Source: an uncultured Lentisphaerales bacterium
GTDB taxonomy: Bacteria; Verrucomicrobiota; Lentisphaeria; JABSQK01; UBA12247
Assembly: GCA_943788985.1 (NCBI GenBank)
Contig: CALSSJ010000013.1
Location: 21,521-85,520 of the forward strand
Reading direction: 5' to 3'
DNA length: 64,000 nt
Below are positions 6,852 to 34,921 of the stretch, one piece after another. The notes beneath the pieces were generated by a model. It saw only the letters and a list, made by a program, of their open reading frames with translations, was not told the DNA's origin and ran no database searches. Both the position numbers and the translations under genes were made by a program. Position 1 is the first letter of the stretch. Every line of letters begins with the position of its first letter.

Positions 6852-9800
6852 TTAAAGCTCTTTGAGGCGGACGTTGCGAAGCCAGCACTCCATGGCCGGA
6901 CCGGCGTGCAGTTGCATGCCAATCAGGCCCTTGAGCTGCTTATTGGGGTGATTGTCGATAATGTCGACGGCCACCTCGCCATTGAGCTTGTGAATCATGT
7001 GGTTGCCACGACAGATGATTTCGTAGGTCTGCCATTCGTCGGTCTTAACCGGGGTGACCTCGCAGGTCTTGCCCACAACCTTAGGCTTGCCGTCGGTACC
7101 GACTTCAACTTTTTGCCCACGACGGGCGACAATGCCACGTTTGTCGAGCTGTTCCGCATAGAGCATCGCGACGTACGGTGGGTTCGGATGAATGTCTGCC
7201 TGATAGCCGCGCAGTCGATGGTCGGCCTCGTTCAGCCATTGCGAGCGATACATCATGCCGGAATTGTTGCCGGTGCATTTGGCCTCGAAAGAAAGGTGGA
7301 AGTCGCCGACTTCACCGTCCCAGACAAGAAAGGTGTTGGCCTTGAGCTTATTGCCTATGCTTGTGCCGTAGATGACGCCGTCCTTGACCGACCAAAGCGC
7401 GGGATCGCCCTTCCAGCCCGACAAATCTGTGCCGTTGAACAAGGCCTTGGCGCCTTCCATTTCGGGCTGATAGCTGGCCTTGGTGAAGTATGCGTGTTCG
7501 GGATCTCCGGCGGAGTAGATGTAGGCGATCAGGTCGCTGAGTTCGTCTGGATTGAGCGGATAGACCAGGCCGGGAGGCATGGACGAGACAGGGTAGGGCT
7601 TCTGAGTCTTGACGTTGGCGAGTTCGACGTCGACGTTGGATTCTGGCGAGAAAGGGTTGGTCATGATGTGTGCCACGCCGTCTTCTTCCGTGCCGAGACG
7701 ACCAATGATTTCCGACCCGTCGTTCATCGTGAAGTGGGTGCTGCCGTATTGATCGGAAATGACCTTGGACGGCTCGATGATGTTCTCCAGCATGTCACGG
7801 AGGGTATAGCGATTGACGGAGCCGGTGAGATCCGGGCCAATGCCCATACCTTGGCCAGCAAAACGATGGCAACTGGCGCAGGCGGTCGCATGGAACAGGT
7901 TCTCGCCGCTCTTGAAGTTACGACCCGCCAGATTGTCCTTGACTGCCGTAACCGCTCCGTCAACGGTCCAGGCGCGTCCCGGGCCCTTTGCTGGGCTGAT
8001 GGCACGCGGCTTGGTGAGCGACTTGCTGGAGGCGGTGTCGTATTCGGCACGCTTGGCGACGTCGGTGACGTTGGCCAGCGCTTCTTTTCGGGCATTCTCG
8101 ATAAAGATCGCAAAGCTGTTTCCGCCCTGCCAGGTTTTGGCGCGTGGATACCAGGAGAAATAGGAGGCGTGATCGGCGTCCGTCCAGCCAGTCTTGATCG
8201 AGCGTAGCGAGAACGCTAGGGCGAACTGCTGGACGTTCGGGCGAAAGCTCTCCATGCGCTTGGCCGCAGCCGCGTAGCGGTCATTTCGGGCCAAGACGCT
8301 GTCGGCAAGGATCTTCTCTTGCTCGTCGTCAGGCGCAGTCAGGATGAGCTGTACGGTACGGGAAACGGCCTTGGGCGCATCGAGGTACAACAACAGCTGG
8401 CTGAGCTCGCGATTGACGAAGTTGTCATGGTGCGGGAACAAGCCGTCGAGCTTTGCGAGGACGGCGGCGGCGTCAGGCGCGCTGGGTTTCCCCAGCCGCG
8501 TGAAAGCCAGCTGATAGGCACGCAAGGCGCCGAGCAACAGATCGTTGGCGGCCTTGGTGTAGTCAATCTTGTTCAATGCCGCTAGGACGGTGGACTGTTG
8601 GTCTTTGCTGCCCATGCGGGCCAGCGCCGCGGTGGACTCAATGATGCCCCAGGAGTTCGACTCGGTCGCGACGCGGCTCTGCCATTGGGCGACCGGTTGC
8701 TTTTCGATGGCAACCCGCGCGGCGTAGCGAACAAAGCGGTCCGCATGAGACAGCTGCGGCCAGGCTTTGGCAATGGCTTCTTCGCCCACGCCGGTTTCGT
8801 GCAGCGCTTCCAATTCGCGGCGTAGCTGCAGCTCCGAAGTCGGCGTCGCGGCTTGCGCGGGCGCGGTGGATTCTTTGCCGACATAGGAGATGCGATAGAG
8901 TGCGGATTGGGAGCGGCGGCCGCCTACCATGAAATACATGTGACCGTCGCCGGGATTTATCACCACATCGGTGAGCGCCAACGGCTTGCCAGAAACGAAC
9001 TCTTCCGTGGTGGCCTTGTAGCTGGCACCGTCCGGTTCCAAATGGACGGCGTACATGGTGCCGTAGGTCCAGTCGTTGATGAAGAGCGCCTTCTGGTATT
9101 TGGCAGGAAACTTGGCGCCCAGGCCATTGCTAACGCCGGACGGGCTCCCTGGGCCGATGTTGATGGTGGCTGGCAGCGTATCGACGTAGTAGTCGGGCCA
9201 TTTTCCGGTCCCATTGCGCCAGCCCCAGTCGGCACCGGAGACCACATGATTCACGCGAGTAGGGCGATACCAGGGCGCACCAATGTCGTATTCCATGTCG
9301 GCATCAAAGGTGAACAGCTCTCCGTCGATACTGAAGGCTGCGTCAAACTGATTGCGGAAGCCATGGCAGATCAGCTCTTGGCTCTTGCCGTCGGGACTGA
9401 CCTTCAAGATGAAGCCGCCAGGCGCCAGACGCCCGCGGTTGTGGCCACGGCCGTCGGCCATGCGTGGCAACAAATGGTCTTCCTTCCACGCGTTCGCCAA
9501 ACGGGATTGAGTGACCGATTCGGGGATGTACGAGGTGTTACCGGCGATCAGATAAATGGACGTCTTGTCGGGGCTCAATACGGCGCTGTGCGTACCGTGT
9601 TCGCCGCCTGCGTTGATCGGCACTAAGAACTCTTCTTTGTCGTACTGATCATCGCCGTTGGTATCCGTCAAGCGGTGGAGCCCATGCTGGCCGCCCTCGC
9701 CCACCATGATGTACAGGCTACCGAATGCATACAAGGCGCCGTGCCCGCCCTTGGTCTTGACGTTCAGTTTCTCCACCTGAACCACGTCGGTGACACTTAC

Positions 9801-10445
9801 GCGATAGATGGCGCCATGTTGATCCGTGGTAATCAAACGCCCCTTGTCGTCGACGGTCATTCCGACCCAGGAGCCCTCTGTCGCTTTGGGGACCGTGTAC
9901 AGCTTTTCGACTTTGAAGCCGGGCAGTGCTTTGGTCGCGATTGTGCTTGGCGACGGTTTACTGACTGGCGCCGGCGCGCCAGCCTTCCCCCAGACCTTGC
10001 CCCACGGGCCACTGCCGTATGCCCCCTTCTCAACGGCTGCCTGCCACTCGCCTTGCGGCGCCCGCGCCTGCCAGCTCTTGTCCGACACGATTCTCTCTTT
10101 TCCCAGCTGCAACTCGAACAGAAGGCCCGCCAGCGAGCCTTCGTTCTCCGCTTGGACCAGGACCTCGTTCTCGCCTTTCTTGAGAAACTTAGCCACGTTT
10201 AGTTTGGCTGGCTGCTCCCAGTCCTTGGACGCGCAGGCCTGTTTGCCGTTGATGGTCATGGTAAAGGCGTTGTCGCAGGTCGTCATCAACCTGGCCTTCT
10301 TCGGAACCGTGGTCAGGGTGAAGGTTTTGCGGAACTCTACTTTCTCCGCCTTCGCCTTACCCTCTTTCCAGATCCAGTTAGCGGTGTCCGCAACGGCGGC
10401 GTTTGTGATGGCGACAAAAAGAAACAATGCGAGTGATTTATTCAT
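6852..10445 (-). CDS. PVC-type heme-binding protein: signal peptide, beta-sandwich, sorbosone-dehydrogenase-like propeller, HEAT repeats, cytochrome c (CxxCH), DUF1080-like domain
   Basis: CASCH motif, GHGFRNQFD-type propeller motif (CHGFRNQFD), LFNGTDLSGW...QLHAG C-terminal domain, N-terminal signal peptide; 1197 aa. Confidence 0.9.
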   Translation of the reverse strand: MNKSLALFLFVAITNAAVADTANWIWKEGKAKAEKVEFRKTFTLTTVPKKARLMTTCDNAFTMTINGKQACASKDWEQPAKLNVAKFLKKGENEVLVQAENEGSLAGLLFELQLGKERIVSDKSWQARAPQGEWQAAVEKGAYGSGPWGKVWGKAGAPAPVSKPSPSTIATKALPGFKVEKLYTVPKATEGSWVGMTVDDKGRLITTDQHGAIYRVSVTDVVQVEKLNVKTKGGHGALYAFGSLYIMVGEGGQHGLHRLTDTNGDDQYDKEEFLVPINAGGEHGTHSAVLSPDKTSIYLIAGNTSYIPESVTQSRLANAWKEDHLLPRMADGRGHNRGRLAPGGFILKVSPDGKSQELICHGFRNQFDAAFSIDGELFTFDADMEYDIGAPWYRPTRVNHVVSGADWGWRNGTGKWPDYYVDTLPATINIGPGSPSGVSNGLGAKFPAKYQKALFINDWTYGTMYAVHLEPDGASYKATTEEFVSGKPLALTDVVINPGDGHMYFMVGGRRSQSALYRISYVGKESTAPAQAATPTSELQLRRELEALHETGVGEEAIAKAWPQLSHADRFVRYAARVAIEKQPVAQWQSRVATESNSWGIIESTAALARMGSKDQQSTVLAALNKIDYTKAANDLLLGALRAYQLAFTRLGKPSAPDAAAVLAKLDGLFPHHDNFVNRELSQLLLYLDAPKAVSRTVQLILTAPDDEQEKILADSVLARNDRYAAAAKRMESFRPNVQQFALAFSLRSIKTGWTDADHASYFSWYPRAKTWQGGNSFAIFIENARKEALANVTDVAKRAEYDTASSKSLTKPRAISPAKGPGRAWTVDGAVTAVKDNLAGRNFKSGENLFHATACASCHRFAGQGMGIGPDLTGSVNRYTLRDMLENIIEPSKVISDQYGSTHFTMNDGSEIIGRLGTEEDGVAHIMTNPFSPESNVDVELANVKTQKPYPVSSMPPGLVYPLNPDELSDLIAYIYSAGDPEHAYFTKASYQPEMEGAKALFNGTDLSGWKGDPALWSVKDGVIYGTSIGNKLKANTFLVWDGEVGDFHLSFEAKCTGNNSGMMYRSQWLNEADHRLRGYQADIHPNPPYVAMLYAEQLDKRGIVARRGQKVEVGTDGKPKVVGKTCEVTPVKTDEWQTYEIICRGNHMIHKLNGEVAVDIIDNHPNKQLKGLIGMQLHAGPAMECWLRNVRLKEL

Positions 10446-10607
10446 AATGGTCCCTGATGCGATTCCCGCGGTTACGGTTGCGCTTGTTTTAGCTTCAAGG
10501 GCAGCCGCCTGCGCGCGCCACCCCGTCCTTGATTAATTTCCTCCTACCAAAAGCAAGACCCGCGGCTACCGAGGCTACCGGGGGCCGTTCTTACAGCAGC
10601 AGGAAGA

Positions 10608-10757
10608 TCAGACGTTCATCCAAACGCCCATTTTGTGAGCATCGGCGTTGGCTTCCGGGCCCAATAAACCATCACTCGCTTCCAAGGCCGATTCCACGAA
10701 AGGTCTGACCTTGTCTTTGACCGTATTAAAGCCCACGGCTGTGCTACTGTTCCTCAT
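10608..10757 (-). CDS. Unannotated 49-aa peptide MRNSSTAVGFNTVKDKVRPFVESALEASDGLLGPEANADAHKMGVWMNV
   Basis: AGGAGG 7 nt upstream of ATG (10757), TGA at 10608-10610, GC-rich hairpin plus T-run downstream; below the ORF-track length cut-off. Confidence 0.55.
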   Translation of the reverse strand: MRNSSTAVGFNTVKDKVRPFVESALEASDGLLGPEANADAHKMGVWMNV

Positions 10758-10781
10758 GGTTCATCCTCCTGCGGGCCACGA

Positions 10782-10947
10782 TGCCGGGCTCTCGCAGATG
10801 TGTAGTTTATCCCCCAAGAAAGTCTCGGGGGGATACCCTGAACCCTGTTCAAGGGACTGCAAGAGTCTTCAACTATGCAAAAACTGCACAAGCCTAACAG
10901 CTCGACTGAGAATAAAGCCCTTTTGGAGATCGCGCGAGACGGCGGCA
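10782..10947 (-). ncRNA. Candidate 6S RNA-like rod-shaped RNA (~166 nt)
   Basis: Closing stem UGCCG..UCUCGC/GCGAGA..CGGCA. Inner helices UUUAUUCUC/GGGGAUAAA and GAGCU/GGUUC pair fully (via G-U) only on the minus strand. Central CCCUUGAAC-AGG-GUUCAGGG resembles the E. coli 6S 3' bubble motif. Confidence 0.4.
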
Positions 10948-11053
10948 TTGTCTGTTCTTGGACAGAAAATAAACCGGACATCATCGTTGCTAATTTTTCT
11001 GCCCACTATTGGCATTGACGGTCTTGCGTCGCGTTATGTATGTTCCCCGGCCC

Positions 11054-11075
11054 CCTACCGGGCATGCCCGGTAGG
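11054..11075. repeat. Perfect 22-bp palindrome CCTACCGGGCATGCCCGGTAGG
   Basis: Directly self-complementary sequence in an intergenic region. Confidence 0.8.
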
Positions 11076-11397
11076 CTTCCCATCGGCAACAAGTCTCATG
11101 GCTGAACAGCCAGACTCCAGCCTTCGGCCAGATTCGTTAGGCGCTTCCAGTCTCGCCACACGGCAGGGGCCCCTGTAGGGCTGTCGCTTTTTCTTGCCAG
11201 GTACCGGCCAAGCTTGGGGCTAGCCATGCGACTGCCGCAGCGATGGTTGGCGGTGTCGTCGACTGCTGGCGATTGCGCGTGACCTTGATGGAAAGCACCT
11301 TCCGCGCTTGCTCGGTAAAGAAGGTTGAGCAGGACATGGATGGCTTGGTGCGAGCGATCAGGGTGACACTCAACAATCGCGTGCCACGATCCTCACG

Positions 11398-11656
11398 GAG
11401 GCTGGTAACGGGTCAACCTGTCGGCAGTACCTCGTCGGTACGCCTCGACGCGAAAGCCTGACTTGTGTACCTTGAAGTACATCTCGATCCCCCCCAAGTT
11501 GCTTCTGCGTTCAACCCGGGGTTGTATCCCAACCTACGGCGTTGCCCCAAGGTAGGGTGATAATGGGGTTGCCTCGCGGCTGTACCTTCGGGCTCAGTTC
11601 GACCGAGTGCATTAAAGGAGCAGCCCCGAGGAGCCTGTCGGACTTCGACCGGCCTC
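11398..11656. ncRNA. Unidentified multi-hairpin structured RNA candidate
   Basis: Terminal stem GAGGCTGGT/ACCGGCCTC encloses at least six short hairpins (GTACC/GGTAC, TGTAC/GTACA, GGTTG/CAACC, CCTAC/GTAGG, GCC/GGC, CTCAG/CCGAG); no credible ORF. Confidence 0.3.
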
Positions 11657-11696
11657 GTTCCATTTTTCCGCGTAGCTAGGCGCCTCGCAGGCACAG

Positions 11697-11725
11697 AAAG
11701 CCCGGAGCGCATACGCACTCCGGGC
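11697..11725 (-). terminator. Rho-independent terminator of the 11747-12259 gene
   Basis: 8-bp stem GCCCGGAG/CTCCGGGC followed by TTT on the minus strand. Confidence 0.7.
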
Positions 11726-11746
11726 TCGGAGAGGAAGGGAAGGGGA

Positions 11747-12259
11747 TCAGTAGATGCTGGGATATTCCTTGATAGTGATCCACTCGCTGGTGACTTCGGA
11801 CCAGACCTGCATGTAGGCCTTGGCCCCCCGGATCCGCGGCTGGAACAACCGCCGCCCATCTTCGAGCGAGACGACTACCGGACCCTCGGAAAGATCTGGG
11901 ACATAACGTGGTGCAGGCCGTGCAGGAGCCACATACGGTGCGGGAGTGATGCAGGGGGCAGGCCGTGCGGGTTGCGAGACGTAAACGGTTTCGTGCTGGA
12001 CCACGGCGGGCTGCCGGCAGTTGTTGCGAAATGGTGACGAACGATGCCGGTACTCGGTGCGGGTCGAGCGGGTTCTGTGGGTGGCGCGGTGTTGATTGCT
12101 GTCCTGGTGCATCTGGCTGAGGACACTCAAGCCAACGACACCAGCAAGTATCTTTCCGGCGGTCGACCATTCGTCGTTTCCGGCATGGGCGTGTTGGGGA
12201 GTGGCGACTGCGGCGAAGAGTACGAGGGCGAGAACGGATGCTGTGAGATTGCGTGTCAT
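11747..12259 (-). CDS. Secreted hypothetical protein (glycine-zipper-like segment, Pro-rich linker)
   Basis: Signal peptide (..QHAHA), GKILAGVVGLSVL segment, RBS GAGG, downstream terminator. Confidence 0.75.
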   Translation of the reverse strand: MTRNLTASVLALVLFAAVATPQHAHAGNDEWSTAGKILAGVVGLSVLSQMHQDSNQHRATHRTRSTRTEYRHRSSPFRNNCRQPAVVQHETVYVSQPARPAPCITPAPYVAPARPAPRYVPDLSEGPVVVSLEDGRRLFQPRIRGAKAYMQVWSEVTSEWITIKEYPSIY

Positions 12260-12459
12260 TTCGAGGCCTCTTGTTGGGTTCTTGAAGGTCGGTTCACAGG
12301 CCTCTGACGCTCCCCAGGACCAAAGTATTCAACGTCTCAGAAGCTTTTTTGAGATTTTTTTAGTGGCTGATTGCCGCGGTTTGCGGAGTTCGCACAATTT
12401 GCGTGCAAGAATACCGTGCAGGGACAGCTACTTAGCAACACCCAACACGGAGACGAGGT

Positions 12460-33831: not shown

Positions 33832-34921
33832 ATGGCGCATATCGACGGTAGGACATTGCGAAAGCGATTTACTCTGATCGAATTATTGGTCGTGATCGTC
33901 ATCATCGCCATACTGGTGTCCCTGCTGCTCCCGGCGCTGTCGCGCGCCAGGTACACAGCTCGGCTGGCCGCCTGCACTAGTGAGCTCCATCAATGGGGTA
34001 TTGGCCTCACTGCGTGGGCAGGGGAGCACGACAGTTATCTGCCCGAACGCTCTGTTTACTCGAACGGCAATCGGCAGCCACATTTGCTGAAGTCGGGTGG
34101 AGCCGATGATCGACAGCTTTTCGACGACGTGCTCGGGCTCCCGCGTACAAACTGTACGTTTGTTGGCGAGCCCCCTTATGACATCGCTACAGTGGGAGGC
34201 CCGTATGTGCTTTCAAGCTATGAATTTTGAGCGGGCGCGGAAATCGACCATAGGCAACCCGCCTCGAGCATGTTGCGCATTGGCGACACCATGAATTGGA
34301 CTTCATGCAGCACGAACTATGAGTTTGACATCTTAGGGCCCACGCGGAAATAACGTTACATTTTGGCGGGAGCGCCGGATGGTCATATGCAAGGCGCGTG
34401 GAGCGATGCGTACCCGTAGGTACGTATGCGACACGCAACGCCGCAGATGGCTGTCCGCCGCCCCGCCCCGCAGGGCAGGGCTGCGACTGTTTTGCCCCCT
34501 GGCGGCGTTGCCTCGCTCGAGATATACCTACAGGTATACCCGCTCGCTCGCGCCTTGCCAGGAACCAAAACAGCCAGCAGCAAAATGTAACGTAATATCC
34601 GCGCGGGCCCTTAGTGGCAGACATGGACCGCACACGTCTGGCGTCCAGTAACTCGGTGATGTCTTCGCATCCACAGACAGTGCTGGGTTGCTCCCTTTGC
34701 AGTTGATAGCCCCCGGATACAAGATCTATACCTACTTCTCATCGGGCGGAGTGCGCGGAACGGTGGATCGGAACTTCCTTCACTCTGACGGCTCAGTCAG
34801 TCGTATGACAAAGGTTCTCGCTCCTACGCCTACCAACTGGGATTCACGGCTCGTACGCGTTCCCTATCAATCGAACAGGCCTGCCGATTCGCCTTCCGGC
34901 TATCTGCCGACGGCTGACTGA
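33832..34921 (+). pseudogene. Prepilin-type N-terminal cleavage/methylation (FTLIELL) protein, disrupted
   Basis: [29 protein letters not shown]; TGA at 34228-34230, MITE at 34336-34610, frameshift near 34673, and C-terminal RNFLHSDGSV in ORF 34688-34921. Confidence 0.85.
34336..34610. mobile_element. 275-bp MITE, 30-bp TIRs, TTA target-site duplication
   Basis: TIRs GGGCCCACGCGGAAATAACGTTACATTTTG and GGGCCCGCGCGGATATTACGTTACATTTTG (27/30); TTA at 34333-34335 and 34611-34613; removal restores EFDILVADMDR in frame. Confidence 0.88.

Follow-up and report, generated by a model that had tools for sequence, protein, structure and literature searches.

Gene context of the hairpin-dense region

A stretch of 263 nucleotides crowded with potential hairpins (positions 11398–11660) raises the question of whether it encodes a structured RNA that has yet to be described or owes its hairpins to an element of another kind. 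It lies in a 64-kb window, the whole stretch of DNA that was analysed, which corresponds to positions 21521–85520 of contig C13 of the genome of an uncultured marine member of the Lentisphaeria (assembly G000; 4.58 Mb in 48 contigs, 83.6% complete). The preliminary description of the window considered the region the best local candidate for an undescribed RNA system, possibly one part of a non-coding RNA of ~0.9 kb, and named the remnant of a mobile-element end as an alternative. The source genome was compared with 40 relatives, among which there is no second member of its own family.

The region sits inside a gene-poor intergenic spacer of ~1 kb. One flank of this gap is occupied by a 49-codon open reading frame (ORF; 10608–10757, minus strand) and by a minus-strand gene for a 1197-aa protein with 3-keto-disaccharide hydrolase and cytochrome c domains (6852–10445). 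The other flank holds a 170-aa ORF (11747–12259, minus strand), the translation of which begins with a signal-peptide-like N-terminus. The 170-aa protein has no Pfam match. One relative, P0002, encoded on an 18.8-kb Logan contig, is 55% identical to it, and others of ~30% identity occur in metagenomes. Two blocks are conserved between the 170-aa protein and its 55%-identical relative, AGNDEW-TAGKILAGVVG at the N-terminus and GRRLFQPR...IKEYPSIY at the C-terminus. The 170-aa gene is followed by a terminator-like hairpin on the minus strand (11699–11726; inverted repeat I5, with 12-nt arms that are 92% complementary and a 4-nt loop) and then by TTTCTGT. This hairpin forms the right boundary of the element.

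The gap contains a single promoter-like match, a sigma-70-like site at 11015–11044 on the plus strand, and no promoter-like site lies directly upstream of 11398–11660. Just downstream of the match at 11015–11044 there is a perfect 22-bp palindrome with zero spacer (11054–11075, CCTACCGGGCA/TGCCCGGTAGG). To the left of the region, a 72-aa ORF extends over 11243–11461 on the plus strand. Its codons 1–46 (11243–11380) are 54% identical to residues 27–72 of P0004, an 81-aa ORF on a 612-nt ENA contig, and the codon log-odds of this segment are weakly positive on both strands. Adjoining the region, 11243–11380 may represent a small gene; alternatively, it may be non-coding but conserved.

Predicted secondary structure

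The fold predicted for the plus strand is closed by a 9-bp stem, in which the 5′ half GAGGCTGGT (11398–11406) pairs with the 3′ half ACCGGCCTC (11648–11656), one of the pairs being G–U. This stem, pointed out in the preliminary description, is common to the MFE and centroid structures. The 3′ half is followed by GTTCCATTTTTCC, and no terminator-like site was called at 11648–11656. The octamer CCTGTCGG does recur near both ends of the region (11417–11424 and 11634–11641), as had been reported; by simple arithmetic, ~0.5 single repeats of an 8-mer are expected by chance in a sequence of 263 nt. The surrounding 1.1 kb contains 11 inverted-repeat pairs of 10–16 nt with 75–100% complementarity, and thus a 9-bp closing stem is not unusual in this setting. 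The count of at least six hairpins compares with about five or six helices in the plus-strand centroid. The proposed tetraloop motifs, cUUCGg (11586–11591) and GC-GAAA-GC (11450–11457), are both present in the plus strand, but neither forms a closed tetraloop in the predicted folds.

Folding of the plus strand of 11398–11660 yields an energy of −108.5 kcal/mol (z score −3.07), which one of 200 shuffled sequences equals or betters; the minus strand has a z score of −2.19 against shuffles. The region was also ranked among all 263-nt windows of the 64 kb, folded on both strands with the energy regressed on composition. It falls in the top 2.0% on the plus strand and the top 4.6% on the minus strand, and about 25 other windows are equal or better. 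The fold is therefore modestly unusual. Its signal is unevenly distributed. The left 105 nt remain at chance level (z scores of −0.10 and +0.31) and the right 150 nt yield z scores of −1.18 and −1.89. The only part standing out, from which the fold signal of the region comes, is a central long-range hairpin of 72 nt on the plus strand (11445–11516; z score −3.70, matched by one of 200 shuffles).

These values bear on one form of the RNA proposal, a lineage-specific structured small RNA of ~260 nt read from the plus strand, perhaps built in part from a captured repeat module, in which the 9-bp helix would close a multi-hairpin fold. The plus-strand z score, the retention of the closing helix in the centroid and a T-run, CATTTTTCC, after the 3′ half of the closing stem all agree with such an RNA. 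However, a rank no higher than the top 2% of the 64-kb windows, a left part of 105 nt with a z score of about 0 and a nearest promoter-like site as far off as 11015–11044 weigh against it.

Known RNA families and coding potential

A scan of the whole 64-kb window with the 4227 covariance models of Rfam 15, a check that the preliminary description had proposed, gave no match at the gathering score, and none at E ≤ 10 over 10400–12300. The region matched no known RNA family; the same scan returned no 6S RNA, riboswitch, intron or omega/bridge RNA. The reported absence of tmRNA, RNase P and SRP signatures agrees with the lack of any match at either threshold, and a small RNA finds no counterpart in Rfam.

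Coding potential was assessed by codon-usage log-odds trained on 823 long ORFs of G000. The log-odds are negative throughout 11398–11660 in all six frames, compared with ~+0.33 bits per codon for the flanking genes, and a six-frame tblastn search of the region against G000 identified no paralogous protein. With no frame scoring positively, the region is non-coding, as originally described and as a small RNA would also be. The remains of a frameshifted protein gene, or a set of small ORFs, would offer another account of the region, one suggested by a third-position-like GC enrichment that changes frame three times over 11200–11680, by ORFs of 45–148 aa that overlap the region and by the weak relative P0004 of the adjacent ORF (11243–11461). 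Nonetheless, this origin is very improbable given the negative log-odds in six frames and the lack of a paralog in the tblastn search; in addition, the similarity to P0004 ends at 11380, before the region starts, and the 79-aa antisense ORF has no homolog.

Homology to a three-hairpin repeat family

When the region was used as an nhmmer query against the source genome, all of the top 10 matches were arms of one repeat family. Profiles built from other arms of this family, with the window copy left out, identified the region in turn. A first-round profile of 8 arms matched 11503–11567 with an E value of 2.1e-5, and a profile of 15 arms ('it2', nhmmer) matched 11503–11627 with an E value of 6.5e-7 and 29.6 bits in the genome-wide search. 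The plus-strand segment 11503–11627 is a diverged arm of the three-hairpin family, whose third hairpin here contains an insertion of 23 nt. Its closest paralog (G000 C5:201135–201229) shares plus-strand positions 11538–11627, with 72.6% identity over 95 nt in blastn (E value of 5e-6; 6e-6 in nhmmer), and contains the 23-nt insertion as well. Weaker blastn and nhmmer matches correspond to inverted segment pairs on contigs C15, C12 (two loci) and C37. The kind of match that the preliminary description had named as contradicting its proposal, one to a known repeat or insertion-sequence end, thus exists for the right half of the region.

No homolog of the left 105 nt could be detected, and by sequence similarity only about half of 11398–11660 is demonstrably repeat-derived. 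The rest of the gap (10760–11510) has no paralog in the genome and an ordinary fold energy, which argues against a single large non-coding RNA of ~0.9 kb. An ISAzo13-type MITE located in the same window (34333–34613) was considered as a source and rejected; its blastn comparison with 10450–11760 produced chance matches of 8–23 nt with E values of 0.5 or higher.

Outside the source genome, blastn detected no match to the region in the 40 relatives, the comparison with related genomes that had been proposed at the outset. The metagenome loci reached through the ~30%-identical relatives of the 170-aa gene contain no DNA resembling the gap or the repeat, genome contigs of other species yielded no instance of a pattern restricted to the window and C5 copies, and searches of plasmids and phages gave no match. 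No orthologous locus on which covariation could be assessed was found among the 40 relatives, the metagenome loci and the genome contigs. This lack of DNA matches in relatives, metagenome loci, plasmids and phages is a further point against a small RNA.

Architecture of the intact copies

Intact copies of the family in G000 are palindromic doublets of ~260–330 bp that comprise two inverted units. Each unit is ~90 nt long and contains three hairpins, HA, H1 and H2. H1 has the form CCTGGGGC-GTT-GCCCCAGG and is followed by GCTA, and H2 is GGGC-TTTCA-GCCC. Well-kept doublets are located at C15:86580–86901 (L002), C12:112411–112757 (L003), C12:62763–63108 (L004) and C37:32959–33259 (L005). When ten arms are aligned, 89.7% of the cells are paired and double changes occur at 10 of the 20 pairs, a result that none of 500 shuffles reached. 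The repeat family is genuine and hairpin-constrained.

The H1–GCTA–H2 portion of the arms aligns with the Rfam model of Acido-Lenti-1 (RF01687; PMC2864571) with scores of 21–28 bits, and no repeat copy in G000 reaches the gathering score of 37. The two share an 8-bp hairpin and GCUA, followed after a linker by a short second hairpin (5 bp in Acido-Lenti-1), which are the features of the parent family of the window copy in G000. They also occur in the same taxon, the Lentisphaeria, as multi-copy, extragenic sequences, and in relatives Acido-Lenti-1 lies near group II introns. However, the copies in G000 stay below 37 bits and the window copy has no RF01687 match even at E ≤ 10. The G000 unit differs further in its third hairpin (HA) and in the palindromic doublet arrangement, and Acido-Lenti-1 is classified as an sRNA in Rfam whereas the present evidence points to a DNA repeat.

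An exact 22-mer spanning the H1 hairpin and GCTA, CCTRGGGCGTTGCCCYAGGCTA, was observed in at least 119 stretches of genome contigs from many phyla, frequently at contig ends (L074–L153, for example L075:357–678). The taxa include Planctomycetota, Verrucomicrobiota, Acidobacteriota, Chlamydiia, Beggiatoaceae, Prevotella and others. One Parabeggiatoa contig contains seven copies of CCTRGGGCGTTGCCCYAGGCTA with a 50-nt period.

Divergence of the window copy

A covariance model of the three-hairpin unit (HA, H1 and H2), termed R1, matches about 18 arms genome-wide. Its sole match in the 64-kb window is located at 11474–11582 on the plus strand (17.8 bits) and has non-standard pairs in all three helices. 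The window copy ranks 16 of 18 with an E value of 0.48, which is not significant alone, and the intact arms score 73–99 bits. H1 includes three non-standard pairs, GCUA is replaced by GGUA and the second RF01687 hairpin is split by the 23-nt insertion. Hairpins HA, H1 and H2, the structural test of membership in the family, are not intact in the window copy. The window copy therefore retains significant similarity in sequence, and its structure is poorly kept.

The pairs of the MFE structure of the window copy are not preserved in its closest paralog. When 53 pairs were mapped on the C5 copy, 19 were unchanged, 11 were changed yet pairable (two of them with double-sided changes) and 23, or 43%, were broken. 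The C5 paralog itself folds no better than shuffled sequences (z score +1.49).

No second (left) arm is detectable on the minus strand. A MAFFT alignment places 11445–11470 with the inner left arm of the intact doublets, the homology of the left part being statistically undetectable. The tail of the region (11605–11656) resembles the outer ends of the intact arms, ACT(C/T)C(A/G)AC(G/C)GGC, and the 3′ half of the closing stem thus appears to lie in a tail like an outer arm end. The central hairpin 11445–11516 probably corresponds to the inner inverted repeat of what was once a doublet, with a remnant of the first hairpin of the left arm pairing with that of the right arm. By extension, the whole of 11398–11660 may be the remains of one palindromic doublet, a reading in which the left half is without statistical support.

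The comparison with the paralog also bears on the RNA proposals. With the fold not kept in the C5 paralog, the right half accounted for by the repeat, and 10760–11510 possessing ordinary fold energy and no paralog, the proposal of an undescribed RNA system, alone or as part of a ~0.9-kb non-coding RNA, found no support. Acido-Lenti-1 is itself a candidate sRNA in Rfam, which lends some credit to the small RNA of ~260 nt outlined above; with 43% of the pairs broken in the nearest paralog, we nonetheless regard that RNA as improbable. Slightly less probable still is a lineage-specific structured RNA, made of the 263-nt region alone or together with 11243–11380, that has recruited a REP-derived module. 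If true, the Lentisphaeria would offer an instance in which a dispersed DNA repeat was exapted as an sRNA.

A remnant of the repeat could instead serve a local transcript, as a 3′-end stabiliser or back-up terminator of the 170-aa gene, or as part of a long leader or promoter region of the genes that follow downstream on the minus strand, the 49-codon ORF and the gene for the 1197-aa protein. REP sequences act in this way in enterobacteria; those of E. coli (REP/BIME) stabilise upstream mRNA and terminate transcription. The position of the remnant is suitable, 40–90 nt beyond the terminator-like hairpin of the 170-aa gene and upstream of the next minus-strand genes, and the most stable window in the vicinity (11501–11763, z score −3.05) is on the minus strand. 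However, the damage to the repeat stems argues against selection on hairpin stability, the 170-aa gene already has its own hairpin and T-rich tail, and neither transcription nor conservation provides support. Such a role is unlikely, if a little less so than either form of structured RNA.

Acido-Lenti-1 repeats and Y1 transposases in relatives

Acido-Lenti-1 matches above the RF01687 threshold occur in 15 of 41 Lentisphaeria genomes, with up to at least 109 copies per genome. In these relatives the copies form tandem arrays as well as clusters in which the orientation alternates, a copy pattern that, by analogy, is REP/BIME-like behaviour. The G000 family likewise shares with REP, BIME and REPIN sequences (Nunvar 2010, PMC2817692; Bertels and Rainey 2011, PMC3116915) the form of short, dispersed extragenic palindromes that build inverted doublets and alternating arrays, and in relatives the repeats lie on both sides of a single small Y1 HUH gene. 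It differs from them in that the enzymes of the relatives are IS200-like and not RAYT, that the unit consists of three hairpins and not one, and that G000 has few copies and no enzyme gene that could be found, the window copy being degraded.

The enzymes were identified by a search with PF01797, which located several Y1 HUH transposases in four relatives. Acido-Lenti-1 is found above threshold on both sides of the Y1 gene, within ~450 nt, at three of the six loci examined and at none of the other three. The flanked genes belong to relatives G034/G025 and are located at L201:1405–1869 (minus strand), L202:1477–1941 (plus strand) and L198:1477–1905 (plus strand). L201 also contains a group II intron domain at 2210–2286, in agreement with the reported proximity of Acido-Lenti-1 to group II introns (Weinberg et al. 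2010, PMC2864571). The three flanked proteins are 142–154 aa long and carry the motifs HVH and Y---Q--HH. Against NCBIfam models they score 51–65 bits with the IS200/IS605 family NF033573 and 20–24 bits with the RAYT family NF047646 (cut-off 80).

The Y---Q--HH motif is the signature of TnpA_Y1 subclass 1.2 (Quentin et al. 2018, PMC6006769), low-copy proteins without insertion-sequence properties (PMC6006769). The Acido-Lenti-1-flanked Y1 genes of G034/G025 resemble this subclass in both HVH and Y---Q--HH, while the link to a cognate hairpin repeat rests on the present analysis and goes beyond PMC6006769. The IS200-like Y1 enzymes of subclass 1.2 probably have the 'Acido-Lenti-1 sRNA' of Rfam as their cognate DNA repeat. 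Neither the window nor the assembled part of G000 contains such an enzyme: PF01797 identified no Y1 gene in the 83.6%-complete assembly, and tblastn with the Y1 proteins of three relatives gave a best E value of 0.26. Given the completeness of 83.6%, a Y1 gene may simply be unassembled.

A model for the origin of the region

Taken with the alternatives weighed above, we consider it likely that 11398–11660 is what is left of an Acido-Lenti-1-type, REP-like hairpin repeat that has decayed and is probably immobile. Both IS200/IS605 TnpA and TnpA_REP have imperfect hairpins on single-stranded DNA as their binding sites and cleave the DNA close to these (PMC6006769). By analogy with IS200/IS605 TnpA and the REP-associated transposases, the three-hairpin units would fold on single-stranded DNA, where a small Y1 (HUH tyrosine) enzyme, the gene for which lies elsewhere, would bind and cut the hairpins such that the repeats are copied or maintained. 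The doublets would most likely be non-autonomous REPIN-like elements and the units the substrates of the enzyme. In the window, the right arm would survive as sequence at 11474–11627, with a tail that perhaps extends to 11656 and with damage to all three stems. Of the left arm, seemingly the inner remnant alone would persist, and its pairing with the right arm would produce the central hairpin 11445–11516. Such a remnant would presumably have no present function. The hairpin density of 11398–11660 would then be high because it was inherited from a palindromic DNA repeat and not because of selection on an RNA. The alternative of a remnant mobile-element end came close to this outcome, insofar as the evidence favours a decayed REP-like repeat related to Acido-Lenti-1.

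The locus itself matters little, except that a misleading candidate for a new RNA is eliminated and its hairpin density explained. Its significance is for the repeat population to which it would belong. The lack of a detectable enzyme gene, the sub-threshold copies and the stem-damaged copy in the window fit a decaying repeat population in G000, and few, sub-threshold and partly decayed copies in a genome without the enzyme are what would be expected if the repeats depend on that enzyme.
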